From contig JAFGHD010000084.1 in assembly GCA_016939365.1 (NCBI GenBank), forward strand, positions 576 to 64,575: 64,000 nt of DNA, given 5' to 3'. The stretch comes from Bacteroidales bacterium. Lineage in GTDB: Bacteria; Bacteroidota; Bacteroidia; Bacteroidales; JAFGHD01. Shown piece by piece: positions 16,359-52,734 of the stretch (positions are counted from its first letter, which is position 1; the number at the start of each line of letters is the position of its first letter). Under the pieces are notes generated by a model, which did not search any database, had not been told where the DNA came from, and was given only the letters and a program-made list of their open reading frames with translations. A program made the translations under genes and the position numbers.

Positions 16359-16458
16359 TTCAGTTTATTTTTACCTGCTCAACGAAGGGATGCGGCCGGT
16401 CGGGAATTTCAATGAAAGGCAATACTTGATCTTTAAGCGTCGGGTTAACCCCAATGAG

Positions 16459-17343: not shown

Positions 17344-17353
17344 GCAGATACTC

Positions 17354-18457: not shown

Positions 18458-18853
18458 TGGTCTGTGTCTTTTGGTTGTTTGGAATAAAAGTAGAAAAAAC
18501 TTCTATTACTCAAATCCGGATCAGCGGGTATCGGTTATTTTTGAAATGGGGTGCAGAAATCTGCATAACAATCTATTTGTCAATAGTATGGTCAGGGAAT
18601 ACTCATTTAGGAAGGAACCTGAAAATACTGCATTTTTCGTTTTTTTAGTTGCGATAATGATTATCGGACTGATGCATAAACGAAGATCCGGTCATAACTA
18701 AGAATCCGGAAGTTCTCCCCTTTTGTGTATACGCTTTATACTGGTTGGTTTATTCTCAATCTATCTGATTTATCCCGAACGACACCCTGCACCGGTATGA
18801 TCTGACCGGCAGGGCAAGTCTTGATTATGCAACGCCGTTCAGTAAAGCCGGCG

Positions 18854-36834: not shown

Positions 36835-37275
36835 TCAATTGTGGATGATGAGGAGCTCGCCGTCAAAATCCGTACGGTATTGTTTCAGGGGGAGAGTTGC
36901 CGGCCCGTCGAAAGGACTGCCGTCGATCAGATTGAAACGGGACATGCAGCAGGAATCAATGGCGGTAATGCCCGAGGGCTCCACCTCCACACGGGCACAT
37001 TCACGTTCCGGATCGTAAGTGCATGTTCTTTCATATGCTGAGAAGGAATAGGTATCGTTCCTGTATAGGATGATCCCGCGGTATCCATGTCCGTTGATAT
37101 ACTTGAAACCTCCGATATTGATGAAATCGAGGCTGTTTGGATATAAAGTCACATAGACGTATACATTGGGTATGTCTGCCTTGGTACCATCGTCTTTTTT
37201 TCCGCAGGAGAACAGGGTAATGGTCAGGATGGCGGCCAGCACTTCAGCCCATTTGGCAATGGCTCTTTGGGGCAT
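36835..37275 (-). CDS. small lipoprotein, possibly a Rieske-like fold lacking the His ligands
   Basis: The ATG at 37275 gives MPQRAIAKWAEVLAAILTITLFSCGKK (lipobox LFSC). The segments ERTCTYDP and DSCCMSRFNLIDGSPFDGPATLPL resemble CxH...CxxH Rieske boxes with both His replaced. The upstream 138 codons of the ORF-track frame look non-coding. Confidence 0.55.
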   Translation of the reverse strand: MPQRAIAKWAEVLAAILTITLFSCGKKDDGTKADIPNVYVYVTLYPNSLDFINIGGFKYINGHGYRGIILYRNDTYSFSAYERTCTYDPERECARVEVEPSGITAIDSCCMSRFNLIDGSPFDGPATLPLKQYRTDFDGELLIIHN

Positions 37276-37347
37276 GATGAAGAGGCGATTTGATAACAAA
37301 GTTACGTTATTAATGCAAACTGTCGTTGTCATCTCAGCAATATCCGG

Positions 37348-37647
37348 ATGAAAATTGCAAGAATCCCTAAAAGGGCAATCCTTCTCTTCCTGACCGTGGT
37401 TATACTGATCCCAACCATGGAAAATTGCAGGAGCCATCAGGTGCTGGCAGCCCAACGACAGGCTGAAAGGGTTCAGCGCAATCACATCAGAGAGGAAGAG
37501 AAAATTCATCGTGCTGAACTGAAACAACACTGGAAAATGCAGGACAAGGAAACCCGGAAGCGGATGAAGAAATCGAAACGAAAGGCACGAAAGATGAACC
37601 GGAGGCTGAGGTACGAATTCTTTCTGTGGAGATGGCTGGGTTTTTAG
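37348..37647 (+). CDS. small bitopic, highly basic protein
   Basis: 99 aa. ATG start, N-terminal hydrophobic helix (AILLFLTVVILIPT), then a Lys/Arg-rich predicted helix (KETRKRMKKSKRKARKMNRRLRYEF). The stop lies 18 nt before the sensor kinase ATG. Confidence 0.5.
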   Translation: MKIARIPKRAILLFLTVVILIPTMENCRSHQVLAAQRQAERVQRNHIREEEKIHRAELKQHWKMQDKETRKRMKKSKRKARKMNRRLRYEFFLWRWLGF

Positions 37648-37665
37648 TTCAGCCGGAGGAACATC

Positions 37666-40600
37666 ATGGCCTGTTTTACGTACAACCATCCGATGCTTTC
37701 ACTTTTCCACAACAGGCTACTTCGCCACTTCACATCACAGGTTTGGATCATCAGCCTGTTGTGTCTGACGGCATATTCGCAGCAGCAGTTGACGGATACT
37801 AAATTCCAGAGATTATTCTCCGAGAACAGCAAGCTGGAAAAGGGCCTTTCCCAGAACTGGGTTTACTGCATTCTGCAGGATCAGATGGGCTACATGTGGT
37901 TCGGCACATGGGAAGGCCTGAATAAATATGACGGGTACAGGTTTATTATCTATAATGTCGATGACGGATTATCGGATCATACGGTCAATTGTATTCTTGA
38001 GGATATGGACGGGTATCTTTGGGTGGGTACGGATAATGGCCTGAATCGTTTCGACAGGAAAAGCAGCCGGTTCATTCAATTCTTCAATCAACCCGGGGAT
38101 TCGGCCTCCCTGGTGGACAACAAGGTGAATGATATCGTCCAGTCCCGTGACGGCCGGATTTGGATTGCGACGGCTGCCGGATTGAGTATGCTTGAACCGG
38201 GCTCTCATCAGTTCAAATCTTATTTTATCGCCCCCCAGGACTACAATAGCCTGAGAAGCAACTATTTTATAGATATTTATGAAGATTCCGGAGGTATCCT
38301 GTGGATTTCATCCACTTACGGCCTGATCAAATTCAATCCCATCCGGGGGCGCTCCACACGGTATTACAATATTCCTGGCGACCCCAATTCCCTGAGCAGC
38401 AATAATGTGAGGTGTGTCATTCAGGACAGGAATTCCAATTTTTGGATCGCTACCACCCGGGGGCTCGACTTCTTTTCACGGGAGGATCAGCACCTCAGTC
38501 ATTACAGGCAGGATCCTTTGAATCCGTCAAGCCTGAGCGGTAACTGGGTACGTGTCCTTTATTCAGACAGCAGGGGAAGGATCTGGGCGGGAACCAACGA
38601 AAACGGACTGAACCTCTTTGATCCGGCCACAAACAGCTTTATCCGGTTCCATCATCACATCAATGATGAAAGCAGCATCAGTAACAATAAGATTTACAGC
38701 ATTTTTGAGGACCGTTCATCCAATATCTGGGTGGGAACATTCAATGGTGTCAATAAGATCAGCAGTTATTCCAATGATTTCAACACGATCAGAAGGCTGT
38801 CAAATGATGAATACAGCATGAACAACAATATTGTCTGGGGTTTTGCAGAAGACAACCGAAATGACCTGTGGATATGCACTTCCGGAGGGATCAATATTTA
38901 CGACCGGTCTGGAGGGACCTATTCAAGTATCACTGCGGAAGGGAATAACGGTAATTCTTTATCCGGGAATGATACACGTTCCATTCTTTATATATCTGCG
39001 AGGAATGAATTCTGGGTAGGCACATACGGATCGGGCCTGAACCGGGTGGACGCGTTTACCCTCAGTGTGTCACGGTACCGGCAAGATCCAAATGCCAACT
39101 CCATCAGCAGTGATTACATCAACCAGATCATACTTGACCGGGCCGGACAAGTATGGATGGCGACCGGTAATGGTGTTTGCAGGTTTGATCCGGCCGACCT
39201 CCGTTTCAGGGTGTACCGCCATGATCCGGGAGACACCCTCAGCCTGGGCCATAACATTGTCATTTCCGCACTGGAGGATCAGAGGGGAATCCTATGGTTC
39301 GGTACCAACAACGGGATCAGCTGCCTGAACCTCAGCACAGAAAAGTTTCGCAGGTATCTGTCCGGGCCCGACCCTTCTGTCAACCACATTGTCTTTTGTC
39401 TCCACCAGGACCGGACAGGGAAGATATGGGCGGGCACATCGGGCTCCGGCCTTTTCAAGCTGGATTCCACCGGTCAGGTTCTCAGGCATTATTCAACGGT
39501 CGATGGGATGCCTAACAATATCGTTTATGGAATACTGGAAGACAAGGAAGGGAACCTTTGGCTCAGTACCAACAGGGGTTTATCGAAATTTTATGTCATC
39601 GGGGAGCGGTTTGTCAATTATGATGTCACCGACGGACTTCAAAGCAATGAATTCAACCTGGGTGCAGCCTTCCACGGAACCGGCGGAGAATTGTATTTCG
39701 GGGGCATGAACGGGTACAACGTTTTTTATCCGGAACGGATCATCCATAATCCCAACAAGCCACAGGTGGTGATCACTGCCTTCCGGAAGTTCAATGAGAT
39801 ACAACCCGGGGAGTTCCTTCACCAGGATACCGTGGTGTTAAGCCACGACGACAATTTCTTTTCTTTTGAGATCTCCGCACTCGATTATACCAATCCCTCA
39901 AGGAACAGATACAGGTATATGCTTGAAAACTTTGACGGGGAATGGACCTACACGGATGCCGGCAACCGCATTGCCGAATACAAGAAGGTAAGGCCCGGAA
40001 CCTATGTATTCCGTGCCAACGGCACCAATAATGACGGGGTCTGGGCAAACGAGGACATCCGGGCTTTTGTCATTGTGAAACCACCCTGGTTTCATTCCTG
40101 GGCATTCAGAATCCCATCCGGCATCATTCTCCTCGTCGCCGGCTGGTGGCTGGTTCATAACCGGATACGCCGTATCAGGCAAAAACATGAAGTCGAAAGA
40201 CATATGCTCGAGATAGAAAAACAAAAGTTTGACCTGGAGCAGAAAGCGCTCAGGTTGCAGATGAATCCCCATTTCATCTTCAATTCGCTGAACTCCATTC
40301 AGAGCTATATCATCGAACATGATTCACAGTCTGCCATTCTCTATCTATGGAAATTCTCACAACTCATGAGGCTTATTCTGACCAACTCGGCCAATAAATT
40401 CGTCCCCCTGAAGGATGAACTCAAATCGCTCACTTATTATATGGATCTGGAACAGCTCCGGTTTGAAGGCAAGTTTGATTATGAGGTAATAGTGGCACCG
40501 GATATCGATGAAGAGTTTGTTGAGATACCCCCCATGATCATTCAGCCTTATGTTGAGAATGCCATCATTCATGGGATTGTCCACAAATCCGGGAAAGGTC

Positions 40601-40869
40601 ATCTGAAGTTGCAGTTCACACATGAGGATGGCCGTTTGCTCTGTGTTGTGGAGGATAATGGCATCGGCAGGGAAAAAGCAGCCGAGATCGCCCTGCAGGA
40701 TGGTCTTAAAAAGAAGTCACGCGGTATGATGATCACCAAGGCAAGACTCGATATACTGAAACATCAGACCGATGAAGCCTACGAGGTGAAAGTACTGGAT
40801 CTCAGGGATCAATCCGGAGCTCCGGCCGGCACACGTGTCGAACTGGTCATTCAATTTCATGAGGGATAA
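37666..40869 (+). CDS. beta-propeller (two-component regulator propeller / Y_Y_Y) sensor histidine kinase of the LytS/His_kinase (PF06580-like) type
   Basis: 1067 aa. Signal peptide. About 14 repeats of the W.GT..GL..(F/Y) propeller blade motif. Y_Y_Y-type Ig domain (YRYMLENFDGEWTY). TM helix. LQMNPHFIFNSLNSIQ H-box typical of LytS-family kinases. HATPase region (QPYVENAIIHG, DNGIG). Confidence 0.92.
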   Translation: MACFTYNHPMLSLFHNRLLRHFTSQVWIISLLCLTAYSQQQLTDTKFQRLFSENSKLEKGLSQNWVYCILQDQMGYMWFGTWEGLNKYDGYRFIIYNVDDGLSDHTVNCILEDMDGYLWVGTDNGLNRFDRKSSRFIQFFNQPGDSASLVDNKVNDIVQSRDGRIWIATAAGLSMLEPGSHQFKSYFIAPQDYNSLRSNYFIDIYEDSGGILWISSTYGLIKFNPIRGRSTRYYNIPGDPNSLSSNNVRCVIQDRNSNFWIATTRGLDFFSREDQHLSHYRQDPLNPSSLSGNWVRVLYSDSRGRIWAGTNENGLNLFDPATNSFIRFHHHINDESSISNNKIYSIFEDRSSNIWVGTFNGVNKISSYSNDFNTIRRLSNDEYSMNNNIVWGFAEDNRNDLWICTSGGINIYDRSGGTYSSITAEGNNGNSLSGNDTRSILYISARNEFWVGTYGSGLNRVDAFTLSVSRYRQDPNANSISSDYINQIILDRAGQVWMATGNGVCRFDPADLRFRVYRHDPGDTLSLGHNIVISALEDQRGILWFGTNNGISCLNLSTEKFRRYLSGPDPSVNHIVFCLHQDRTGKIWAGTSGSGLFKLDSTGQVLRHYSTVDGMPNNIVYGILEDKEGNLWLSTNRGLSKFYVIGERFVNYDVTDGLQSNEFNLGAAFHGTGGELYFGGMNGYNVFYPERIIHNPNKPQVVITAFRKFNEIQPGEFLHQDTVVLSHDDNFFSFEISALDYTNPSRNRYRYMLENFDGEWTYTDAGNRIAEYKKVRPGTYVFRANGTNNDGVWANEDIRAFVIVKPPWFHSWAFRIPSGIILLVAGWWLVHNRIRRIRQKHEVERHMLEIEKQKFDLEQKALRLQMNPHFIFNSLNSIQSYIIEHDSQSAILYLWKFSQLMRLILTNSANKFVPLKDELKSLTYYMDLEQLRFEGKFDYEVIVAPDIDEEFVEIPPMIIQPYVENAIIHGIVHKSGKGHLKLQFTHEDGRLLCVVEDNGIGREKAAEIALQDGLKKKSRGMMITKARLDILKHQTDEAYEVKVLDLRDQSGAPAGTRVELVIQFHEG

Positions 40870-40871
40870 AC

Positions 40872-41666
40872 ATGAACATGCAGGAAACAACTGAAAAAAG
40901 AAGCGAACCCACCCTGATCAGGGCGGTTGTGGTGGAAGATGAAAAGAAATCCAGGGAAACCCTTACCGGGCTCATACGACTGTTTTGCAAGAACGTGGAG
41001 ATCGTGGCTGAAGCCGACGGTATGCAAACGGGCATTGAAGCTGTGAGAAAACACCTTCCGGATATCATTTTTCTTGACATCCAGATGCCTGACGGAAGCG
41101 GTTTTCGTTTGCTGGAGGAGCTGGCTGGTGTGGATTTTGAAGTGATCTTTACCACTGCCTATGACCAGTTTGCGATCAAGGCATTTAAATACTCGGCCAT
41201 CGATTACCTGCTCAAGCCTATCTTCCCCGATGACCTTATGGATGCCGTTCGCAAGGCGGAGCACAAAATGAAAACCAAGCAGAATGCGCGTAAAGGGATC
41301 GAGGTATTGCTTGATAATGTCCGCAGGGCCGGGGACCAGCCCCCGAAAATCGTCCTCTCCACACTGGAGCAGCTCCACGTGGTTGGCGTGGATGATATCA
41401 TCCGGTGCGAATCGGACAATTACTATACCGTTTTTTTCTTCACCAACGGCAAGAAGCTCATTGTTTCCAGAACCCTCAAGGAGAATGAGGAGCTTCTGTC
41501 TGAATACAACTTCATCAGGCCTCACAAGTCACACCTGATCAATGTAAAGTATATCAAGGGATTCCTGAAATCCGAACATGGTCTGATCCTTATGACTGAT
41601 GGCAGCCGGGTTCCCGTTTCCAGAAGGAAGCGGGAATACATCATGGAAATATTGAGCAGCCTTTGA
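40872..41666 (+). CDS. LytTR-family response regulator (REC plus LytTR DNA-binding domain)
   Basis: 264 aa. REC domain (VVVEDE, phospho-acceptor context IIFLDIQMPDGSGF). C-terminal LytTR domain (IIRCESDNYYTVFFF...FIRPHKSHLINVKYI). The ATG lies 2 nt after the kinase stop. Confidence 0.93.
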   Translation: MNMQETTEKRSEPTLIRAVVVEDEKKSRETLTGLIRLFCKNVEIVAEADGMQTGIEAVRKHLPDIIFLDIQMPDGSGFRLLEELAGVDFEVIFTTAYDQFAIKAFKYSAIDYLLKPIFPDDLMDAVRKAEHKMKTKQNARKGIEVLLDNVRRAGDQPPKIVLSTLEQLHVVGVDDIIRCESDNYYTVFFFTNGKKLIVSRTLKENEELLSEYNFIRPHKSHLINVKYIKGFLKSEHGLILMTDGSRVPVSRRKREYIMEILSSL

Positions 41667-41691
41667 CTTTTTCTGCAGTCATTAGGTTTAA

Positions 41692-41725
41692 GCCGAAAAC
41701 TGATTTCAGTATGCCGAAAACTGAT
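41692..41725 (+). promoter_or_regulatory. perfect 13-nt direct repeat GCCGAAAACTGAT x2 with 21-nt periodicity; candidate LytTR operator
   Basis: Copies at 41692-41704 and 41713-41725. They lie 26 nt downstream of the LytTR regulator stop and about 18 nt upstream of a -7-like box. The repeat itself is certain; the operator function is inferred. Confidence 0.5.
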
Positions 41726-41742
41726 CGGCGCTTTTCATAGTG

Positions 41743-41750
41743 TAAATTTA
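41743..41750 (+). promoter_or_regulatory. candidate -7 box (TAAATTTA, one mismatch to TAnnTTTG)
   Basis: Located 30 nt upstream of the ATG at 41780. A second TATATTTA is at 41754-41761. Confidence 0.3.
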
Positions 41751-41779
41751 ATGTATATTTACCCGGAATTTTGTCAAGA

Positions 41780-42238
41780 ATGGAAGATTTCCTTATCATA
41801 TTACTCGGCCTGGCGTGGATCCTTTATTCCTTTTACAGCCGGGGCAAGAAAAGGAAAAAGGCATCAGCCCGAAAGGCAAACGAGGCACCCCGGGAAAAGC
41901 GTGACCCATCTCCGGAGAAGATCATCCAGGAACTGTTCGGGATTCCCTCAGGGGAACCGGTTTTTGAGCCCCCCCTGGATGATTCATATGAACCGGAGCC
42001 TTCTTTTAAGCCCAAACCGGAAGAGACTGCCAGGAAAATGAAGCCATTTCTGGATTCTGAAATTGAGCAATATCTTGGCGGCCGTTTTGCGGGCGAATCC
42101 CATTTCACAAGAGTCAGCCCCGTGGGATCGTTCATGCCGGAATCCCCTGAATCTGTGGATTTTGATCTCCATCGGGCGGTAATATTATCTGAAATATTAA
42201 GAGCACCATACATACATTCAGACGGGCATTTTTTTTAA
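41780..42238 (+). CDS. small bitopic protein with a basic juxtamembrane patch and a short EP/KP proline-rich spacer
   Basis: The ATG at 41780 gives MEDFLIILLGLAWILYSFYSRGKKRKKASARK..., then ...YEPEPSFKPKPEE... and a C-terminal AVILSEILRAPY segment. The ORF-track frame starts at TTG 41771. Confidence 0.55.
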   Translation: MEDFLIILLGLAWILYSFYSRGKKRKKASARKANEAPREKRDPSPEKIIQELFGIPSGEPVFEPPLDDSYEPEPSFKPKPEETARKMKPFLDSEIEQYLGGRFAGESHFTRVSPVGSFMPESPESVDFDLHRAVILSEILRAPYIHSDGHFF

Positions 42239-42335
42239 TTCGGCAGTAAAAAATTTTGGACGGTAAAATTTTTATTTCATAACTTTACCCACCTTTTGGA
42301 GGCGCAATGTATCATCTAACATAAATCTTCATGAT

Positions 42336-45300
42336 ATGTTTAGAAATTTACTATTGACGTTTGGAGTCATACTGGCGGCCAGCGTGATGGTTTTTTCGCA
42401 AACCGGTACTTTGAAGGGGAAAATTGTTGACAAAGAGACCAAGGAACCCATTCCGTTTGCGAATATTGTTGTTGAACTTGGCGGAACGCTGATCGGGGGA
42501 GCCACCTCTGATTTCGAAGGCAACTACATTATCAAGCCCATCACTCCCGGAAAATACGATATCCGGGCATCCTATGTGGGCTTCAGCCCGCTGTTGGTAC
42601 AGGGCATGGTTATTTCCGCCGACCAGATCAGGTTCTTCGACATTGAGATGCAAAAGACAGCGGAGGAGCTGCCCGAGATCATCGTGGAAGAATATGCCAT
42701 TCCGCTGATCAACAAGGACGAAACGGTGTCCGGCAACACACTGACCTCAGAGGATATTCAGAAGATGCCCAACAGGTCGGCCAATGCCATTGCTGCAACA
42801 GCCGGAGGTGTGGTCTCCCTTGACGGTGGTGTGAGCAACATCCGTGGTGCACGTGCCGACGGAACCATCACCTATATTGATGGTATCCGGGTTCTCGGAA
42901 GCGCCACACTACCACAGTCTGCCATTGAACAGGTATCCGTCTTCCTGGGCGGTCTGCCTGCTCAATACGGAGATGCCAGAGGCGGTATTATCAATGTCAC
43001 CACCAAAGGTCCGTCCAGGAAATTCGGGGCCGGTATAGAACTGGAGTCATCCCAGTTCCTCGATGCTTTTGGCTATAACCGATTGGGATTCAGCATCCAG
43101 GGACCGCTCATCAAGGGAAGGAAACAGCAGGAGACCTCCCTGCTCGGATACTTTATCGCCGGAGACCTGAATTACAACATGGACGGACGTCCCACCCACG
43201 ACGGGATCTATGTGGCTACGGATGCCACCCAGCAAAACATTGAACAGGTACCCCTTCGCCCCACCGGACTCGCCTCGGGAGGGGGAACATTCAGAAATGC
43301 CGAATTTGTCCGCCTGAGCGACCTGGAAAAGGTGAAAACCACACCAAATACATCGAATTACGGCGCCAGCATTTCAGGAAAGATTGACGTCAGGACTACC
43401 CAGACAACCAACCTGACTTTCGGGGGGCAATACAACTATACCTACGGCAATAATTACAGCTACTATTATTCCATGTTTAACAGTGACAAGAATACCATTA
43501 CAGAGAACACCACATGGAGGGTTTTCGGCCGTTTCACGCAACGCTTCCCAACAAGCCAGGAAAGCAAATCCCTGATCAAAAACGTATACTATACCCTGCA
43601 GGCCGACTTTTCGAAATCTCATGGCAGTTACATGGATCCGGATCATAAGGACGACATCTTCAAATACGGTTATCTGGGGAAATATACCACATATAAAACA
43701 TCAACCTATGAACTGGGTGACGAAGTGGTGAATGGAGTGCAGTATACGGATGTGCAGATTCTGAACAGCTGGGATTTTGATACACTTTACACCTTCCAGC
43801 CCGGACAGTATAATCCGCTCATTGCCAATTATACATCGCAGATATACGATCTTTTTCCGCTCCCGGGTGCCATACAGAATGAAGATGACCTGCAACTGAA
43901 GGGCGGCCTGCTGAACGGGCAGGGTCCCCCATCGGTCTACGGATTGTGGGGATCTCCCGGAGCTCTCCAAAGCGGGTACGGAGAATCAGACAATACACAG
44001 ATATCACTGAATGCCTCCGCGGCCGCAGATATCGGGAATCATGAGATCCGTTTCGGTTTCCAGTATGAACAGCGGATCAGCCGCGGATACAATTATGCCG
44101 CCGGCGCCCTCTGGACACACATGCGCGGTCTGACCAACTATCACATCCAGGATCTGGACAAGGCAAATCCTTACCTACTGGAGGAAGATGGCGTATTTCA
44201 GGGTTATATCAATTATCCGAGGCTTTATGTCGACTCCCTGCACTATGACTTCGACAAGAACCTCAGGAGAAAGCTCGGCCTGCCCGTCAACGGACTCGAC
44301 TGGATACTTGTCGATTCATGGGATTTTGAAAGCAAAACCATCCAGTATTATGACAAGGACGGCATCCTGAGGACCATCAACGTCGGTGAAGACCTCTTCA
44401 CCATTGATATGTTCAGCGCCGATGACCTCCTTTGGGACGGAGCCTATTATGCCAATTATTTCGGTTACGATTACAAGGGCAACAAACTTAAGGAAAGACC
44501 AAGCTTCGATGATTTCTTCACCGCAAAGGATGAAAACGGACTTTTCACAAGGGAGATACCTGCTTTCGAACCCATCTACATGGCTGGATATATCCAGGAT
44601 AAGTTCTCTTTCCGGGATCTGGTTTTTAATATCGGGGTGCGTGTCGACCGGTTTGATGCCAACCAGCCGGTGCTGAAGGATCCGTTCCTTTTCTATCCGG
44701 CATATACCGTGGGCGAAGTATCCACTCTTCCCAACGGCGAAACAGTGCAGCACCCGGGCAACATCGGCAGCGACTATGTGGTTTACATCGACAACAAGAA
44801 CGATCCCAGGAAGATCATGGGATACCGTTTTGAAGACACCTGGTACAACGCCAGCGGGATTGAGATCCAGGACCCCTACATCCTGGACGACGGCAGCGGG
44901 ATCACCCCTTATCTGAAAGATCCTGACCAGAAGAAGGTCAACAGTTCAGCCTTCGAGGATTACGAGCCCCAGTGGAGCGTCATGCCGCGTATTTCATTCT
45001 CCTTTCCCATTTCAGACGAAGCCCTGTTCTTTGCTCATTATGACGTGTTGACCCAGAGACCTACCAGCAGCGTTTACGCTGATCCCTCCATTTATTACTT
45101 CATCAATACGATCGGAGGATCGATCAATAATCCAAGCCTGAAGCCCACCAAGACGATCGATTATGAGCTGGGCTTCCAGCAGAAGCTGACCAATTCATCC
45201 TCCCTGAAGCTAACCGCTTTTTACCGCGAGATGAGAGACGATATCCAGTTCTACCGTTTCAACGGAGCCTATCCGAGGGATTATTATTCGTTTAATAATA

Positions 45301-46055
45301 TTGACTTCGGGACGGTGAAGGGACTCACAGTGACCTATGACCTGCGGCGTACCAATAATGCCAGGATCAATGCGAGCTACACCCTGCAGTTCGCCGAGGG
45401 CACCGGTTCCTCTACCACCACGGCACAGGCGCTGGTCGCTTCCGGACTCCCCAACCTGAGAACCACGAACCCGCTCAACTGGGACAGGAGGCACAACTTC
45501 AGCATCCTGATTGATTACCGGTTTGCCGAGGGCAAGGAGTACAACGGTCCCACCGTCAACCGGAAGATCAAGGGAACCGACAATGTGAAATCCACGCAAC
45601 TGCTCAAGAATACCGGTGTGAACTTCACCGTGACCGGTGGTTCGGGCATTCCCTATACCGCTCAGGAAAATATCCTGGCCTTCAATTCGGCCGGAACCCG
45701 GATCCTGAGGGGAACGATCAACGGATCCAGGCTCCCCTGGCAGTTCAGGGTGGATATGCGTGTGGACAAGGAGATTTATCCCAACTGGGGGAAGGAAGGA
45801 AAGAAAACCAATGCCTATATCGATGTGTATCTCCAGGTGCTGAATGTGTTCAATACCAAGAACGTGATGGCAGTCTATCCTGCCACCGGGAACCCGGATG
45901 ATGACGGATACCTTGCTGCCGCCGAATGGCAGAGACAGATCAATGAACAGATTGACCCGCAGTCATACCGCGACCTGTATGCCATCAGGATCAATTCTCC
46001 GGGCAACTACAGCGCACCGAGACAGATACGCATGGGGCTGCTTCTCAATTTCTGA
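42336..46055 (+). CDS. TonB-dependent-receptor-like outer-membrane barrel with an N-terminal CarboxypepD_reg domain and a plug; unusually long; no SusD partner
   Basis: 1239 aa. Signal peptide. GTLKGKIVDKETKEPIPFANIVV...GNYIIKPITPGKYDIRASYVGF (carboxypeptidase-regulatory-like fold). TonB-box-like PEIIVEE. Plug (NIRGARADGTITYIDGIRV...GGIINVTTKG). Long beta-rich barrel ending in the aromatic OMP signal ...RMGLLLNF. Confidence 0.88.
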   Translation: MFRNLLLTFGVILAASVMVFSQTGTLKGKIVDKETKEPIPFANIVVELGGTLIGGATSDFEGNYIIKPITPGKYDIRASYVGFSPLLVQGMVISADQIRFFDIEMQKTAEELPEIIVEEYAIPLINKDETVSGNTLTSEDIQKMPNRSANAIAATAGGVVSLDGGVSNIRGARADGTITYIDGIRVLGSATLPQSAIEQVSVFLGGLPAQYGDARGGIINVTTKGPSRKFGAGIELESSQFLDAFGYNRLGFSIQGPLIKGRKQQETSLLGYFIAGDLNYNMDGRPTHDGIYVATDATQQNIEQVPLRPTGLASGGGTFRNAEFVRLSDLEKVKTTPNTSNYGASISGKIDVRTTQTTNLTFGGQYNYTYGNNYSYYYSMFNSDKNTITENTTWRVFGRFTQRFPTSQESKSLIKNVYYTLQADFSKSHGSYMDPDHKDDIFKYGYLGKYTTYKTSTYELGDEVVNGVQYTDVQILNSWDFDTLYTFQPGQYNPLIANYTSQIYDLFPLPGAIQNEDDLQLKGGLLNGQGPPSVYGLWGSPGALQSGYGESDNTQISLNASAAADIGNHEIRFGFQYEQRISRGYNYAAGALWTHMRGLTNYHIQDLDKANPYLLEEDGVFQGYINYPRLYVDSLHYDFDKNLRRKLGLPVNGLDWILVDSWDFESKTIQYYDKDGILRTINVGEDLFTIDMFSADDLLWDGAYYANYFGYDYKGNKLKERPSFDDFFTAKDENGLFTREIPAFEPIYMAGYIQDKFSFRDLVFNIGVRVDRFDANQPVLKDPFLFYPAYTVGEVSTLPNGETVQHPGNIGSDYVVYIDNKNDPRKIMGYRFEDTWYNASGIEIQDPYILDDGSGITPYLKDPDQKKVNSSAFEDYEPQWSVMPRISFSFPISDEALFFAHYDVLTQRPTSSVYADPSIYYFINTIGGSINNPSLKPTKTIDYELGFQQKLTNSSSLKLTAFYREMRDDIQFYRFNGAYPRDYYSFNNIDFGTVKGLTVTYDLRRTNNARINASYTLQFAEGTGSSTTTAQALVASGLPNLRTTNPLNWDRRHNFSILIDYRFAEGKEYNGPTVNRKIKGTDNVKSTQLLKNTGVNFTVTGGSGIPYTAQENILAFNSAGTRILRGTINGSRLPWQFRVDMRVDKEIYPNWGKEGKKTNAYIDVYLQVLNVFNTKNVMAVYPATGNPDDDGYLAAAEWQRQINEQIDPQSYRDLYAIRINSPGNYSAPRQIRMGLLLNF

Positions 46056-46106
46056 CCTGCCTGATCTTATGATGTTGCAATTGATGATAAAAAAAATCGG
46101 CATACC

Positions 46107-49100
46107 ATGAAAAGAAAGTTACGCATTCTCGCTATCTCGTTGTTCAGCCTGATTTTGATCCTTCCGGGCTTTTCCGAGGAGTATCGTTTCGGTGAATACA
46201 AGTCCACGGAAAGCATCAAATCAACGGCGGCGGGGTGTGCTGCTCCATCGGGTTTCAGGTTCCTGCAAATCAATAATGTCAGGGCCAGGATCAACACCGG
46301 AGGCGATATGTGGTGGGATCTTCCCGGTGGCATCGGATCACAGTATTATGTTCCTGCCAACGGTTCAGCCACCTCCCTCTTTTCGGGATCGCTCTGGATC
46401 GGGGGGCTTGATATCAACAACCAGCTGAAACTGGCCGCCCTCAGGTTCCGCCAGGTCGGCCAGGACTATTGGACGGGTCCGCTGACCGTCGACCGTTCCG
46501 CATCCGTGGATGAAGAGACATGTTCCAAATATGACAAGCATTTCGTGATCAAAAGGGAGGAGGTGGAAGAGTTCGTCAACTGGTTTAACAGTGAAAACCC
46601 CGACGAGGAGTATCCCGGTTATTCCATACCCACATCCATCCTGGAGTATCCTGCTCACCCTGATCAAACCCTGCAGCAGAATAAATACCTGTCAAAATAC
46701 CTGGCACCCTTCTTCGATGTGGACGGGGATGGGGAGTATATGCCCAAGGAAAGCGGCGATTACCCCTATTACGACTTTGCCAACAACCTGTGCCCGACGA
46801 ACCTGTATCCCTATTACCTGGGGGAGGAAACCATCTACACGGGTGTTGTGGATGAAGACGGAAAGAAAGTGCTTGTACCCAAAGGTTCCCAGTATTTCCC
46901 GATCCGGACCAGTGAAACATATTATTATCCTACCGATGAAGTTCCGGTGGATTACTTCAACGGCCTTCTTGTCGACCAGGTGCTGAAGGGAGATGAGACT
47001 TTCTGGTGGATTTTCAACGACAAGGGAAATTTCCACACCGAGACCGACGGTTCGCCGATCGGGATGGAGATACGTGCCCAGGCCTTTGCCTTCGCTACCA
47101 ATGATGAGATCAACAACATGACCTTCTATAGTTATGAGATCATCAACCGCTCCACCTATGAATTGACCAAGACCTATTTCTGTCCCTGGATCGATGCCGA
47201 CCTGGGGTATGCATGGGACGACTATGTCGGTTGTGATGTGAACAGGGGACTGGGGTATGCCTACAACGGCAATGCCGTTGACGGGGGCGGCCAACCGGAA
47301 GCTTATGGCGACCAGCCGCCTGCCGTGGGTGTCGATTTCTTCCAGGGACCTTACATAGATCCCGATGGTTACGACAATCCCTCCTTCAGGGGTGACGGGT
47401 TATTGGGCCCGACATTCAACGGCGACTGCAGCATCGTATCCTTCGACTCCACCGTGATCAGCATGACATACGGACCAGCCGATTCCCTGGTCACGGGCAA
47501 TTTCATGGTGATGGCTGCCGCCATCAACGGCGTGAATTTCGGGAACGGCATCATCGACGATGAACGCTTCGGTATGAGGGGGTTCTCCTATCATGACAAT
47601 GAAGGGGGTGCGCAGGGCGACCCGAGATATGCCGTTGAATACTACAATTACCTTCAGGGTTTATGGCGCTATGGCGAACCCAGGCTTTACGGAGGAACGG
47701 CCTATCCGAATACACCCGGGGTGGTAGGCCCTGAGTGCGACTTCATGTTCCCGGGGGAAACAGACCCGTGTAACTGGGGAACGCATGGTGAGCTTCCCAA
47801 TGGTGGATTTAACCAGGGTGACCTCTACTGGACGGAGGAACAGGTGGGCAACAATCCCGACGACCGCCGTTTCATGCAATCGGCAGGCCCCTTCACACTG
47901 AAATCAGGTGCCGTAAACTATATCACCGTGGGTATCCCCTGGGCCAGAGCCATCGCAGGCGGTCCGTGGGCCTCAGTGGAACTCCTCAGGGTGGTGGACG
48001 ACAAATGCCAGGCCCTTTTCGACAACTGTTTCAAGGTGATCGACGGCCCGGATGCACCGGATCTCTCTTTCCGCGAAATGGACCGTGAACTGATCCTTTA
48101 CATTTCCAACAGCAAAGGCACCAACAACTTCAGGGAAGAATACCTGGAACTGGATCCCAGGATCAAGGCACTCACTCCCGATTCCCTCCTGGGAACGCCC
48201 GATGCCTACGATCCCTATTACCGCTTTGAGGGATATCAGATTTACCAGTTGAAGGACGCAACCGTATCTTTGGCTGAAAGCAAACATGATCCGGACAGAT
48301 GCCGTCTTGTCGCACAATATGACGTCAAAAACGGTGTTACCAAGCTGGTGAATTACTACTATGACCAGTCCATTGGTGCCAATGTCCCTGTTGTTGAAGT
48401 GACCGGCGGAGACAACGGGATCGTTCACGCATTCACTGTGACCGAGGATAAATTCGCTTCAGGCGACCGCAGGCTCGTGAACCACAAACAGTATTATTAC
48501 AGTGTCATAGCCTATGCCTTCAATAATTATAAGGATTATGACCAAACCGTGCCGACTGCCCTTGACGGACAGAAGGAACCCTATCTTTCAGGCCGGAAGA
48601 ACATTCAGGTTTACACGGCCATTCCACACAAGCTGATCAATGGTCTGGTGATGAATGCCGCCTTCGGCGACGGCCCCCAGATCACCCGGATCGAAGGGAA
48701 GGGAAACGGAGGACAGTATATTGAGCTGGCGGAAGAAACCATCGAAGAAATTCTCTCCAAACCTCCCGCTCTTACTGAAAATGACACCATGGGCAGCGAT
48801 ACTTATCCCATCGCTTACCGGGCCCGGTACAAATATGGATATGGCCCGGTCGACATCAGGGTCATTGATCCGCTCAATGTCAAGAAAGGTACCTATACGA
48901 TCTTCATCAGCAGCATTTATGATACGGTTTACCGCGAAGTGACCGGTGAGCCCATCCTGGGTGATACGGTTGTGGCATCTACCGGCAAATGGAAGATCAG
49001 GCTCAATGAGACAGGAGAGGTTTTTTATTCTGACAAAAAGATCGACACACCGAATGAACAGATGTTCCCGGAACTGGGTATTTCCATTAATGTATCCCAG

Positions 49101-50624
49101 CCGTTTGACCCAGGTCCATTCAAGGTAGGTGATACGGATCAGGGTACTGAAAGCCAGCCGGTCTGGAGGATTTTTTCCGATAATAACGGTTTGATCGATT
49201 CATATACGGAATATGCCGACAGCTCCCGGAGATGGCTTTCAGGAGTGCCGGACAATGATGTACCCGGCAGTTCGCAGAATTGGATCCGTTCGGGGGACTA
49301 CCAGGACCAGGATATTGGAGGCGGCACCTTTGACGATTACAATATGCCGAACAATCCGCTTGACCCGAACGAAAACTGGGAAAAGATCGAAAACGGCACC
49401 TGGGCACCCCATGTTCTATGCGCTACATACCTGCAGGACGAAAACGGGCCGGTATATGCCATTACCGGAGCAGCAGCCAAGCAGGATTTCCATTTGAGAA
49501 GGATGGCAAGTGTGGATATTGTTCTGACACCTGACAAGAGCAAATGGACCCGAAGCCTGGTGGTTGAAATGTGTCCCGATCCCGTTCTTGCCGAAGGCAA
49601 TACCCCCAGGTTCCACCCAAGAAACTCGCCATCCGTGGATAAGGAAGGCCGGCCGGCAGAAATGGGCGATACCATCCCCAGTACCAACCCGAACGATCCC
49701 GATTACCTGAAGACCACCGGGATGGGCTGGTTCCCGGGATACGCCATCAACCTTGAAACAACCGAAAGGCTTAACATCATATTCGGGGAGGATTCCTGGC
49801 TGGTGGCGGAGAACGGAAGGGATATGCTCTTCAATCCTTCTCCCAACATCTTTGAAAGTCCTTCCGGCAATCCCCTTTTCGGCGGCAAGCATTTTGTCTA
49901 CCTGATGGATCACAACCTTACTGAGGTCACCTATGGCCCCAATGCCAGTGATACCCTGCGTGCAGCCTTCCCGGCCTACGACGGCTGTATAGAGCTATCC
50001 AGGTGGATCGGTTATGACACGATCCTTCCCATTCAGAGGATCTACAACCTTCTGGCCTACCGAAGCGCTATGTATGTGGGCATCCCCCTGTCGGTGAAAG
50101 ACGAAGAATGGCTTTCCAACGAGGTCAGTATAAAGATCCGCGTTGCGAAACCCTACAAACGGCATTTTTCCAGCGATCAGGATACGGTCAATCAGTTTTA
50201 TCAGATTGATGGGACAGTTTATGCGCTGCAAAACAATAATTATCCGATGTATGAGTTTACCACCGATGCCATTGCAACCGTTGCGTCTGATCCTAACAAG
50301 AAGGAAACAGATCTCGATCTGATCGGTGTAGTCCCGAATCCCTATTACGCTTACTCGGATTATGAGACAGCCCCACTTCAAAATTGGGTCAGGATCATAT
50401 ACCTGCCCGAGAAGTGTACTGTGACCATTTACAATGTCAGCGGCACCTTGATCCGGAGGTTCACCAAGGATGATCCGGTCACTTATATTGACTGGGATCT
50501 TAAGAACCATGCAGGCATCCCGATCGCAGGAGGTATTTATCTGATCCATGTCAAATCGGACGCTGGCGAACGGATCGTCAAGTGGTTTGGCTCCCTGCGG
50601 GTGGAAGACTTCAACGAGTTCTGA
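46107..50624 (+). CDS. giant secreted protein of unknown function with a T9SS C-terminal sorting domain
   Basis: 1505 aa. Signal peptide MKRKLRILAISLFSLILILPGFS. Calcium-type DVDGDGEY motif. FEGYQIYQL FN3-like strand. C-terminal 90 aa match the T9SS type-A CTD pattern (VVPNPYY...TVTIYNVSGTLIRRF...IDWDLKNHAGIPIAGGIYLIHVKSDAGERIVKWFGSLR). I found no HExxH, GDSGG or other catalytic signature. Confidence 0.85.
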   Translation: MKRKLRILAISLFSLILILPGFSEEYRFGEYKSTESIKSTAAGCAAPSGFRFLQINNVRARINTGGDMWWDLPGGIGSQYYVPANGSATSLFSGSLWIGGLDINNQLKLAALRFRQVGQDYWTGPLTVDRSASVDEETCSKYDKHFVIKREEVEEFVNWFNSENPDEEYPGYSIPTSILEYPAHPDQTLQQNKYLSKYLAPFFDVDGDGEYMPKESGDYPYYDFANNLCPTNLYPYYLGEETIYTGVVDEDGKKVLVPKGSQYFPIRTSETYYYPTDEVPVDYFNGLLVDQVLKGDETFWWIFNDKGNFHTETDGSPIGMEIRAQAFAFATNDEINNMTFYSYEIINRSTYELTKTYFCPWIDADLGYAWDDYVGCDVNRGLGYAYNGNAVDGGGQPEAYGDQPPAVGVDFFQGPYIDPDGYDNPSFRGDGLLGPTFNGDCSIVSFDSTVISMTYGPADSLVTGNFMVMAAAINGVNFGNGIIDDERFGMRGFSYHDNEGGAQGDPRYAVEYYNYLQGLWRYGEPRLYGGTAYPNTPGVVGPECDFMFPGETDPCNWGTHGELPNGGFNQGDLYWTEEQVGNNPDDRRFMQSAGPFTLKSGAVNYITVGIPWARAIAGGPWASVELLRVVDDKCQALFDNCFKVIDGPDAPDLSFREMDRELILYISNSKGTNNFREEYLELDPRIKALTPDSLLGTPDAYDPYYRFEGYQIYQLKDATVSLAESKHDPDRCRLVAQYDVKNGVTKLVNYYYDQSIGANVPVVEVTGGDNGIVHAFTVTEDKFASGDRRLVNHKQYYYSVIAYAFNNYKDYDQTVPTALDGQKEPYLSGRKNIQVYTAIPHKLINGLVMNAAFGDGPQITRIEGKGNGGQYIELAEETIEEILSKPPALTENDTMGSDTYPIAYRARYKYGYGPVDIRVIDPLNVKKGTYTIFISSIYDTVYREVTGEPILGDTVVASTGKWKIRLNETGEVFYSDKKIDTPNEQMFPELGISINVSQPFDPGPFKVGDTDQGTESQPVWRIFSDNNGLIDSYTEYADSSRRWLSGVPDNDVPGSSQNWIRSGDYQDQDIGGGTFDDYNMPNNPLDPNENWEKIENGTWAPHVLCATYLQDENGPVYAITGAAAKQDFHLRRMASVDIVLTPDKSKWTRSLVVEMCPDPVLAEGNTPRFHPRNSPSVDKEGRPAEMGDTIPSTNPNDPDYLKTTGMGWFPGYAINLETTERLNIIFGEDSWLVAENGRDMLFNPSPNIFESPSGNPLFGGKHFVYLMDHNLTEVTYGPNASDTLRAAFPAYDGCIELSRWIGYDTILPIQRIYNLLAYRSAMYVGIPLSVKDEEWLSNEVSIKIRVAKPYKRHFSSDQDTVNQFYQIDGTVYALQNNNYPMYEFTTDAIATVASDPNKKETDLDLIGVVPNPYYAYSDYETAPLQNWVRIIYLPEKCTVTIYNVSGTLIRRFTKDDPVTYIDWDLKNHAGIPIAGGIYLIHVKSDAGERIVKWFGSLRVEDFNEF

Positions 50625-50667
50625 TACGGAAGAAAAAACTGGTTTATAACGATAAAAAATCAGAAAC

Positions 50668-51732
50668 ATGAAGAATTTTTACAGATACCTGGTCGCGCTG
50701 ATACTGGCAGGGCTGCTGATGGCCCCCATACCGGATCTTCTGGCAGGGAACAAGGACCGGTCAGGTCAATCCGGTGCCAGCGAGTTGCTGATCAACCCGT
50801 GGGCCAGGAGCTCAGGATGGGGAACTGCCAACATTGCCGGGGTCAAAGGATTGGAAGCCATATTCGCAAATGTGGCGGGTATCGCCTTCACCCAGCGTAC
50901 GGATCTGATCTTTGCCAACACCGATTGGCTCAGGGGGGCGGATATCAATCTCATGTCCTTTGGTTTTGCACAGCGGATTGGCCCCGCAGGAGTGCTGGGT
51001 CTCAGTGTGATGTCGATGAACTTTGGCGATATCGAGATACGAGAGGTCGATCTGCCTGAAGGCGGTATCGGCACATACTCGCCCAATCTTCTCAATATCG
51101 GGCTGGCATATGCAAAGGCCTTTTCCAACAGCATCTATGGCGGCATGACCTTCAAGATCATATCAGAATCGATTTCTGACGCATCTGCCCAGGGGATTGC
51201 TATCGATGCAGGCATCCAATATGTGACCGGTGAGCAGGAAAACGTGAAATTCGGCATCTCCCTTCGCAATGTGGGACCCAAAATGAAGTTTACGGGAGAC
51301 GGCTTTTCCCTCAGGGCAATGATCCCCGGTCAGGACAACCTGTTTTCCATGAACCAGCGCAGCGTGGCCTTTGAATTGCCGGCACAGCTCAACATCGGGG
51401 CTTCCTACGATTTCCTGTTTGAAAGGTCCCGGTTCACCGTTGCCGGCGCCTTCACATCCAATTCCTTTACCAAGGATCAGGTGACACTGGGGGGTGAATA
51501 TTCCTTCAGGGATTATGTGCAGCTCAGGGCCGGATATACCTATGAAAGCGGCATTGAAAAGGATATCGAGGATGAAGACCGCTCCAATGCCCTGAAAGGC
51601 CCCAGCGCAGGTTTTTCTGTCCAGGTGCCTTTAAACAAGGAAAAGGGATCAGTTTTTGCTGTGGATTATTCTTACAGACACACAGACCATTTCAACGGCA
51701 CACACAGCATCGGAGTAAGTTTCTCATTCTGA
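50668..51732 (+). CDS. PorV/PorQ-family outer-membrane beta-barrel (T9SS shuttle/attachment family)
   Basis: 354 aa. Signal peptide. N-terminal block GASELLINPWARSSGWGTANIAGVKGLEAIFANVAGIAF follows the PorV/PorQ pattern (..FLL...DARAAGLG...VA.....NPA..A). Alternating beta pattern. Ends in an aromatic signal ...IGVSFSF. Confidence 0.75.
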   Translation: MKNFYRYLVALILAGLLMAPIPDLLAGNKDRSGQSGASELLINPWARSSGWGTANIAGVKGLEAIFANVAGIAFTQRTDLIFANTDWLRGADINLMSFGFAQRIGPAGVLGLSVMSMNFGDIEIREVDLPEGGIGTYSPNLLNIGLAYAKAFSNSIYGGMTFKIISESISDASAQGIAIDAGIQYVTGEQENVKFGISLRNVGPKMKFTGDGFSLRAMIPGQDNLFSMNQRSVAFELPAQLNIGASYDFLFERSRFTVAGAFTSNSFTKDQVTLGGEYSFRDYVQLRAGYTYESGIEKDIEDEDRSNALKGPSAGFSVQVPLNKEKGSVFAVDYSYRHTDHFNGTHSIGVSFSF

Positions 51733-51763
51733 GCTGTCAAAAAACAGGTCATTCCATACAATA

Positions 51764-51803
51764 AGATAAAAGGACCCTAATGTAGGGTCTTTTTATCTTT
51801 TTG
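51764..51803 (+). terminator. strong intrinsic terminator closing the 42336-51732 gene block
   Basis: AGATAAAAGGACCCTA (51764-51779) pairs with TAGGGTCTTTTTATCT (51783-51798), 16 bp including one G-U. The loop is 3 nt, with an A-tract before and a T-tract after. Confidence 0.75.
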
Positions 51804-51821
51804 ATGTCAATTTCAGAAGTT

Positions 51822-52307
51822 ATGTCTAAGATCAGGTACTACACCAAAGAAGGCCTGGAGAATATCAGGGAAGAGCTTGAGCATCTTATAAAAGTCGAAA
51901 GACCCGCCATTTCACTTCAGATTGCGGAAGCCAGAGATAAGGGAGACCTTTCGGAGAATGCTGAATATGTAGCGGCCAAAGATGCACAGGCCTTGCTCGA
52001 ACTGAAGATCTCCAGGCTCCAGGATATGATCATTCACGCCAGGATCATCGACGAATCCAAGTTGGACAACTCCAAAATACTGTTGCTTTCCACCGTGAAG
52101 ATCAAAAACCTGAAAAGCGGTTCCCTGATGACATATACCATTGTTCCCGAACAGGAGGCCGATGTAAAATCTGGAAAAATTTCCGTATCTTCACCCATTG
52201 CACGAGGCCTTCTGGGAATGAAGGTGGGCGATAAGGTCGAAATCCGGGTGCCCGCCGGCGTAATCCCCTTTGAGGTGATGGAAATATCAAGGTCAACCGA
52301 GGATTAA
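51822..52307 (+). CDS. greA: transcription elongation factor GreA
   Basis: MSKIRYYTKEGLENIREELEHL..., with the acidic tip ARDKGDLSENAEYVAAKD and SVSSPIARGLLGMKVGD. An alternative ATG is at 51804. Confidence 0.93.
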   Translation: MSKIRYYTKEGLENIREELEHLIKVERPAISLQIAEARDKGDLSENAEYVAAKDAQALLELKISRLQDMIIHARIIDESKLDNSKILLLSTVKIKNLKSGSLMTYTIVPEQEADVKSGKISVSSPIARGLLGMKVGDKVEIRVPAGVIPFEVMEISRSTED

Positions 52308-52329
52308 CAAAACCAACAACCATATAGTC

Positions 52330-52734
52330 ATGGCGAGTATTTTTTCCAGGATCGCTCAGGGGGAAATACCATCCTGGAAGGTTGCGGAAGACGAAAAGCA
52401 TTATGCCTTTCTTGATATCAACCCGTTAACCGAAGGACACACCCTGGTGATCCCCAGGAAAGAAATTGACTATGTCTTCGATCTGGACGAACCTGCCTAC
52501 AGCGAACTGTTTCTGTTTGCCCGCAAGGTGGCACGGGCCATTCAGAGCCAGGTGGACTGCATCCGGATGGGAATGGTGGTTTATGGCCTTGACGTGCCTC
52601 ATGCACATATTCACCTGATCCCACTGAAAGGCCAGAACGATATCGATTTCTCGAAGCCAAAGGTCCAACTCTCCCAGGAACGCTTCCGTGATATCGCATC
52701 AGCGATCCTGAAGGCCTTTCAGGAACTGGATTGA
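52330..52734 (+). CDS. HIT-family (histidine triad) nucleotide hydrolase
   Basis: 134 aa. The HAHIHLIP histidine triad and the EGHTLVIPRKE block. Confidence 0.9.
   Translation: MASIFSRIAQGEIPSWKVAEDEKHYAFLDINPLTEGHTLVIPRKEIDYVFDLDEPAYSELFLFARKVARAIQSQVDCIRMGMVVYGLDVPHAHIHLIPLKGQNDIDFSKPKVQLSQERFRDIASAILKAFQELD

Follow-up and report, generated by a model that had tools for sequence, protein, structure and literature searches.

The locus described here raises the question of whether three adjacent genes, which encode a predicted TonB-dependent barrel, a very large secreted protein and a small barrel related to PorV and PorQ, specify a single outer-membrane system. The genes lie in a 64,000-nt stretch of contig JAFGHD010000084.1 from a Bacteroidales bacterium, referred to in its entirety as the window. 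The three co-directional open reading frames (ORFs) of the original prediction were re-found in the forward strand at coordinates 42336–46055 (A, 1239 amino acids (aa)), 46107–50624 (B, 1505 aa) and 50668–51732 (C, 354 aa), separated by gaps of 51 nt (A-B) and 43 nt (B-C). Proteins of exactly these sequences are on record at NCBI from a Bacteroidales metagenome-assembled genome. No terminator was found between A and B or between B and C.

A is a predicted TonB-dependent transporter (TBDT), based on its ORF, Pfam and NCBIfam matches and a family profile. B is a predicted type IX secretion system (T9SS) cargo with no known domain outside its C-terminal domain (CTD), and C is assigned to the PorV/PorQ family of outer-membrane barrels by the family model NF033709. 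The trio is a widespread, uncharacterised combination of known part types, a module with deep conservation in environmental Bacteroidota whose products probably form one surface complex. No description of the A-B-C trio was found in the searchable literature on PorV-like proteins, PorV paralogues and complexes of TBDTs with the T9SS.

Families of the three proteins

Protein C matched NF033709 with 151.3 bits (cut-off 90) over model positions 3–326 of 326, in agreement with the PorV/PorQ signature previously noted at its N-terminus. Its scores fell below the thresholds of both the PorV equivalog model NF033710 (70.1 bits, threshold 250) and the PorQ equivalog model NF033711 (80.6 bits, threshold 220), supporting the earlier view that C is a paralog and not the housekeeping PorV. 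The PorP/SprF model TIGR03519 was likewise not reached (18.9 bits, threshold 90.55), and the match to Pfam PF11751 (PorP_SprF) was marginal (28.7 bits, threshold 22.3). When the Protein Data Bank (PDB) was searched, C as a single sequence had no match, and a profile of the C family was needed to identify Flavobacterium johnsoniae PorV (6h3i_F, E=9e-12). On these profile scores, C is considered a third type in the PorV/PorQ family, outside the PorV and PorQ orthogroups.

Protein A consists of a signal peptide, an N-terminal extension (NTE) domain (CarbopepD_reg_2, residues 26–117, 52 bits), a plug (PF07715, residues 128–217, 26.7 bits against a cut-off of 23.9) and an oversized barrel of ~1000 aa that ends in a C-terminal F (...GLLLNF). 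The barrel is several hundred residues above that of typical TBDTs, in line with the earlier remark that A is longer than usual. The barrel domain PF00593 was not called by Pfam in A itself; partial similarity to an NCBIfam TBDT model was detected at residues 927–1078, and PF00593 matches are on record for the A orthologues in loci L081 and L085. A as a single sequence also had no match in the PDB, and a profile of 28 orthologues was again needed, which matched the plugs of Cir (E=5.6e-12), PfeA, PirA, YncD and PqqU, as well as NTE domains, in isolated form, from a TonB-dependent receptor and a SusC homologue (9hfj). The plug motifs IRG and GGxPAxYGDxxGGxI are kept among the orthologues, as is the C-terminal ...NF. 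Taken together, these matches identify A as what is judged to be a genuine TonB-dependent transporter.

The original prediction had described A as a SusC-type transporter with a CarboxypepD_reg, plug and barrel layout. The NTE, plug and barrel were confirmed, but A had no match to TIGR04056 (SusC/RagA) at E≤0.01 and does not belong to that family; the NTE domain is all that it has in common with SusC homologues. The absence of a gene for a SusD-like lipoprotein after A was borne out, as neither B nor C matched any SusD family in Pfam.

In protein B, a signal peptide (residues 1–23) is followed by a conserved N-terminal region (24–650), a region (~650–1000) that looks like Ig-type beta-sandwiches in AlphaFold2 (AF2) models and Foldseek searches, a variable region, a second conserved region (1131–1400) and the CTD (1401–1505; coordinates 50307–50621, forward strand), which was identified as a type-A-like T9SS sorting domain from hidden Markov model matches, Foldseek and conservation. 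The TIGR04183 score of B was 20 bits, below the 23-bit cut-off, compared with 44 bits for a C10 peptidase cargo encoded in the same window. The C-terminal part of the PorZ model NF052228 gave 23 bits on B, PF18962 was matched by 11 of 35 members of the B family, and B is labelled as a T9SS type A sorting domain protein by NCBI. An AF2 model of residues 860–1505 was good (pLDDT 82, pTM 0.77), and its significant Foldseek matches in the PDB were to CTDs only, namely those of PorZ (5m11, E=8e-6), PorU (6za2, E=1.6e-3) and NucA (8glk_D). Searches of PDB sequences with B, as a single sequence and as profiles of 14 and 35 sequences, returned two weak CTD matches and nothing further. From these profile and model comparisons, the CTD of B is judged to be real but atypical, and to be most like those of PorZ and PorU. 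The clear T9SS CTD originally claimed for B was thus upheld as regards the signal peptide and the fold, which matches those of the PorZ, PorU and NucA CTDs, but not as regards its clarity, given the TIGR04183 score below cut-off and the atypical character of the domain.

In a diverse 35-member alignment, the CTD was the most conserved region of B (0.63, compared with 0.37–0.51 elsewhere), and it bears a conserved extra tail, KWFGxLRPxDLNxF. Such conservation is unexpected for a disposable export signal.

Outside the CTD, no known domain was found in B by Pfam, NCBIfam, PDB sequence searches or a Pfam scan of each family member. No characterised enzyme or adhesin family was matched by Pfam, NCBIfam, PDB or Foldseek searches, consistent with the earlier failure to recognise a catalytic motif. 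However, B is not the orphan it was taken for. More than 7000 homologues were found in a database clustered at 90% identity, the best 120 of which were all full length and shared 54–71% identity with B. A search of 1.84 billion representatives at 50% identity found 6681 clusters at E≤1e-3 and 1704 clusters at E≤1e-30, placing B in a very large unannotated family. Among the 150 matches listed, lengths were mostly 1250–1550 residues, and none of the homologues among the matches listed carried a precomputed Pfam domain.

The host uses the T9SS, as is shown by the C10 peptidase cargo. This canonical cargo protein, encoded at 62159–63949 in the reverse strand, consists of a C10 (streptopain-like) peptidase, two CUB domains and a Por_Secre_tail domain. 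A 1357-aa protein encoded in the forward strand (9162–13235) has weak BACON/Ig-like matches and a weak FlgD_ig match at its extreme C-terminus (residues 1280–1344). As the CTD of B gives a similar weak FlgD_ig match, this protein may be another T9SS cargo. Core T9SS genes, including a PorU-like gene, were not found in the window by Pfam and NCBIfam scans.

Conservation of the trio and rate covariation

Close relatives of B are encoded in at least 594 species-level genomes. The genetic context was examined in a main set of the 80 best loci, from Bacteroidales, Lentimicrobiaceae and Prolixibacteraceae metagenome-assembled genomes of sediments, digesters and ruminant guts. With the addition of long-read assemblies and Chitinophagales isolates, 85 loci (L001–L085) were available, and gene order was scored wherever the contig permitted. 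The order and orientation of A, B and C were kept in all 85 testable loci, and greA was the next gene in ~75 of the 80 best. In these 80 loci, the gaps were 18–65 nt between A and B and 18–66 nt between B and C. The longer order A-B-C-greA-HIT, which includes a HIT-family gene, was also found in long-read assemblies and in Taibaiella soli and Polluticoccus soli, two isolates of the Chitinophagales. As the same order occurs in Bacteroidales and Chitinophagales, the arrangement predates the split of these orders (classes in the NCBI taxonomy). The synteny on which the original prediction depended therefore holds in every testable locus, across two orders.

The trio is usually single-copy. In four loci, a second B gene was found just after greA (A-B-C-greA-B2) without a second A or C (L008, coordinates 16144–20283; L011, coordinates 14879–19012; L009; L036). 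The two B proteins are 72–76% identical in L008 and L011 and diverge most at residues ~800–1300; their CTD is slightly more conserved than the remainder of the protein, a difference that is not decisive.

In mean p-distances, A, B and C were slightly less conserved than greA. Because they diverge little faster than greA, a conserved molecular job is indicated for the three proteins, not that of an adhesin under diversifying selection. A role for B as an S-layer protein or adhesin was considered and is unlikely, as B is nearly as conserved as greA.

One homologue of C with 68% identity (P0161) is labelled 'Chlorobi bacterium', and locus L027 (JBLMZZ010000017.1) is labelled 'Omnitrophica WOR_2'. 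Mis-binning or mis-naming of Bacteroidota contigs is the probable cause of both labels.

Covariation of evolutionary rates between regions of the three proteins was analysed using ~70 orthologous trios, with the mean divergence of all other regions controlled for. In a coarse partition, the top two of 36 pairs were the A barrel (741–1239) with the N-terminal region of B (24–650; 0.58) and the CTD of B with C (0.57), whereas the best pair within a single protein reached 0.39; mirror-tree correlations of this kind are confounded by shared phylogeny and region-specific constraint, and such values are suggestive of interfaces and do not amount to proof. A finer, rank-based analysis (210 pairs), from which the Chitinophagales loci were left out, gave the three thirds of C as the three best of 20 partner regions for the CTD (0.49, 0.47 and 0.41), whereas its best partner within B reached 0.16. 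Residues 901–1060 of A paired with residues 24–150 of B (0.48, rank 2 of 210 pairs). Other slowly evolving regions do not pair, for example the N-terminal region of B with the CTD (-0.28), making a simple saturation artefact unlikely.

The covariation of the CTD with C, and of the B N-terminus with the A barrel, is compatible with a self-contained complex of the products. To this extent it fits the self-contained unit of PorV paralog, giant protein and barrel that had been proposed, but the boundaries drawn for that unit were too narrow.

Upstream regulation and the hairpin before greA

A gene for a 1067-aa sensor histidine kinase (coordinates 37666–40869) and one for a 264-aa LytTR-family response regulator (40872–41666) are located upstream of the trio, both in the forward strand. 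The kinase (Pfam Reg_prop 5e-61, Y_Y_Y 2.5e-16, His_kinase 1.3e-21) has an extracytoplasmic Reg_prop beta-propeller and a Y_Y_Y domain between two hydrophobic segments, placed by eye at residues ~25–38 and 810–830, followed by a LytS-type His_kinase domain. The regulator matched Response_reg (2.7e-20) and LytTR (1.2e-17). A Reg_prop/Y_Y_Y sensor architecture is that of the hybrid two-component systems that regulate polysaccharide utilisation loci in Bacteroides, and the propeller/Y_Y_Y sensor hints at an oligosaccharide-type signal. The kinase-regulator pair was found upstream of the trio in 33 of the 80 loci.

A putative LytTR operator (41689–41725, forward strand) is placed between the regulator stop codon and a small ORF, orfZ. 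It is made up of two 16-nt direct repeats, TA[AT]GCCGAAAACTGAT, that are 21 nt apart from start to start, a spacing that is also that of classical LytTR sites such as those of AgrA. The motif CCGnnAACTG-N11-CCGnnAACTG was present in 15 of 30 loci with the regulator and in none of 46 loci without it. Of its 17 matches in the 3.74 Mb searched, 15 fall at this position, and it occurs once in the window.

The orfZ reading frame (41780–42238, forward strand; 152 aa from the ATG) was recognised by homology and position. In its predicted product, a K/E/P-rich linker separates a conserved hydrophobic helix at the N-terminus (MEDFLIILLGLAWILYSFY) from a conserved motif at the C-terminus, FDLxxAVIxSEILxxPY; the protein shares 31% identity (E=1e-14) with the product of the L081 ORF that occupies this position. 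Equivalents were found in ~41 of 77 loci, mostly 100–130 nt upstream of A, and no family in Pfam or NCBIfam was matched. It may be the first gene and a fourth component of the unit. As the operator precedes orfZ rather than A, the regulated unit in this lineage is probably orfZ-A-B-C. In this lineage, the unit thus probably starts further upstream than originally drawn, with the small membrane ORF and the LytTR operator, next to the kinase and regulator genes. The promoter-like region reported before A stands at the level of a consensus match and no further.

The 97-nt gap between orfZ and A includes an AT-rich overlapping palindrome, AATTCGGCAGTAAAAAATTT / AAATTTTGGACGGTAAAATT (42237–42273), which could be an internal promoter or a regulatory site. 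Further upstream, an ORF in the reverse strand (36835–37689) is probably over-called. Its conserved part (~36835–37275) encodes a lipoprotein of ~145 aa with a lipobox (...TLFSC) and a Cys-rich C-terminal domain that matched no family. This gene is transcribed divergently and, in most Bacteroidales loci, lies upstream of the module, whether or not the kinase and regulator genes lie between them.

Downstream of C, the strong terminator that had been reported was located as a hairpin of 17 pairs with a T-run (51763–51799, forward strand), ending 22 nt before the greA ATG (51822). Of 75 distinct loci examined, nearly all have such a hairpin in the gap between C and greA, its end lying 1–23 nt before the greA start. 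Compensatory changes were seen in 8 of the 10 pairs predicted by RNAalifold; in Bacteroidales the stem core GACCCTT/AAGGGTC is kept, with compensatory variants elsewhere. In many loci, a TAnnTTTG-like box (TATCTTTGCA) is present just upstream. No Rfam family matched the hairpin, and there was no Rfam match in the whole of 41600–52400. As it stands directly before greA, the hairpin must be contained in the greA mRNA, and it closes A-B-C while also being a terminator in the greA leader, which does not agree with its previous description as a plain operon end. It resembles a conserved terminator or attenuator of the greA leader, and Escherichia coli GraL is comparable (PMC2836576). The rest of the window is made up of chromosomal housekeeping genes (topA, a PBP1a gene, cinA, pheS, two PPIase genes, tdk, greA and several peptidase genes).

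The proposed complex, its rivals and known systems

The reading preferred here, in which our confidence falls a little short of even, is that A, B and C, perhaps with orfZ, form one transcription unit for a three-protein outer-membrane complex, in which C anchors B via a retained CTD and B serves A as a capture partner. Sec would take B across the inner membrane and the T9SS would take it across the outer one. The CTD would then stay on B, bound to the dedicated barrel C, and B would be anchored in this way at the cell surface. C would sit beside the TonB-dependent barrel A, and the conserved N-terminal domain of B would touch the extracellular face of A. B would thereby act as a capture or processing partner, the role that SusD-like lipoproteins fill for SusC, and A would import the captured ligand with TonB energy. 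In this lineage, the periplasmic propeller-type sensor kinase and the LytTR regulator would turn the unit on via the direct-repeat operator. We infer the CTD retention, both protein interfaces and the direction of transport, and it is a guess that the ligand is a polymer (glycan or peptide). Retention is proposed by comparison with PorZ and PorU, whose CTDs that of B resembles and which are the two T9SS proteins known to keep theirs bound to PorQ and PorV, respectively (PMC10202324); the conservation of the B CTD and its rate covariation with C are indirect evidence.

Several observations weigh against this reading. The TonB-box-like sequence LPEIIVEEY of A (residues ~112–120) is in the right position, but its conservation is moderate to weak in 80 orthologues. 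The best-documented role of PorV is that of a shuttle, not an anchor. In an AF2 model of B residues 24–1200, built from a 43-sequence alignment, the N-terminal 620 residues had a mean pLDDT of only 45.6, and Foldseek returned insignificant Ig/Fab-like matches alone for this model. No invariant residues of catalytic type stand out in the B family. The kinase and regulator genes are missing from more than half of the loci, and orfZ is missing in a rumen-type clade and in the Chitinophagales. The position of a deeply conserved trio among housekeeping genes could equally point to envelope biogenesis, and the confounding of mirror-tree correlations described above applies to both proposed interfaces.

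A role in biogenesis is the basis of one alternative, in which the trio would not import nutrients but would be an accessory module for surface biogenesis or of the T9SS attachment type, with B and C forming a pair like PorZ-PorQ or PorU-PorV to process or deliver a surface glycolipid or cargo, and A in the role of PorF. The best matches of the B CTD are indeed those of PorZ and PorU, the placing of a PorV-family gene directly after the gene for a large CTD protein is as in porU-porV, and PorF (PG0534), an outer-membrane protein resembling TonB receptors, is needed late in type IX secretion (PMC5445135, PMC12704123). A deeply conserved and usually single-copy trio among housekeeping genes would also be expected of such a module. 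However, the model of B residues 860–1400 is unlike PorZ and PorU outside the CTD and B misses their sequence models, while A is ~45 kDa larger than PorF and matches no T9SS model. That the trio would in many loci be controlled by an environmental sensor kinase is better suited to conditional uptake than to core machinery, and such a component is not mentioned in the searchable T9SS literature. This alternative is considered unlikely.

It is also improbable, to a similar degree, that C is a dedicated shuttle and nothing else, taking B from the SprA translocon so that PorU cleaves B, which, like ordinary cargo, is then either released or joined to A-LPS, with A co-regulated but physically separate. 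To judge from Glew 2017, as cited in PMC12578637, and from PMC12618676, PorV is an established shuttle; F. johnsoniae has specialised shuttles for particular CTD classes (PMC12618676), and a tight operon fits the co-expression of a cargo with its shuttle. Against this, one would not expect a transient signal to be better conserved than all other parts of the 1505-aa B, and both the covariation of the A barrel with the B N-terminus and the invariable linkage of A to B and C are left unexplained. That A, B and C are neighbours by ancestry and have no common function is very improbable. As greA and the HIT-family gene are also conserved neighbours with no obvious functional link, order alone proves little, but the genes are separated by 18–66 nt with no terminator between them, the three products are of compatible kinds, all being proteins of the outer membrane or the surface, the rate covariation is confined to particular regions, and the extra B copies remain in the same locus.

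If the preferred reading of an anchored capture complex is true, PorV-family barrels would serve generally as surface anchors, specific to their cargo, for proteins with a type A CTD, beyond the core T9SS machinery, and many environmental and rumen lineages would own a conserved TonB-dependent system built on a principle other than that of SusCD. In the B family, whose proteins have ~1400 residues and which numbers at least 1700 clusters at 50% identity, the sorting signal is the one part with a Pfam domain, and no structure of a relative has been solved. The family is among the larger well-conserved uncharacterised families and is a good target for structure determination. The cultured carriers Taibaiella soli and Polluticoccus soli make the proposal directly testable.

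Among known systems, PorU-PorV and PorZ-PorQ of Porphyromonas gingivalis likewise combine a large T9SS-exported surface protein with a PorV/PorQ-family barrel, and porU and porV are adjacent, as are B and C. They differ in that C falls outside both equivalogs, the unit here includes a TonB-dependent barrel and the CTD retention that is documented for them is one that we infer for B, which by any test applied is neither a C25-type sortase nor a PorZ-like double propeller. On the side of A, PorF is also a TonB-receptor-like barrel tied functionally to the T9SS (PMC5445135, PMC12704123) but has a mass of 92 kDa, compared with ~138 kDa for A, and it is set beside A by size and description. In SprB-SprF and other systems with type-B-CTD cargo, a cargo-dedicated FadL/PorV-like barrel is encoded beside the giant cargo and anchors it at the surface (PMC9143113). 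However, C belongs to the PorV/PorQ family and not to the PorP family, the CTD of B is type-A-like, and the known pairs have no TBDT.

In the Bacteroidota BAM complex BamA-BamG-BamH, a FadL/PorV-like 14-strand barrel holds a surface protein by its loops and packs on a larger barrel (PMC12578637). The families and function are unrelated and BamH is a lipoprotein, not a T9SS cargo; by analogy only, the complex may serve as a structural precedent for C bridging A and B. As in systems of the SusC/SusD and TbpA/TbpB types, a TBDT gene stands beside a gene for a large surface protein, and A has the Bacteroidota NTE domain. Unlike SusC/SusD, the trio includes no SusD-like lipoprotein, A fails the SusC/RagA model and has a plug closest to those of Cir/PfeA-type receptors, and B would reach the surface via the T9SS and be held there by a third protein rather than by a lipid anchor. 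It is possible, and is put forward tentatively, that the trio represents a third, previously unrecognised route by which a TBDT acquires an extracellular partner, besides SusD-type and Slam-exported lipoproteins, that this route is ancient and widely distributed among the Bacteroidota of the environment and the rumen, and that C represents a third functional clade of the PorV/PorQ family.

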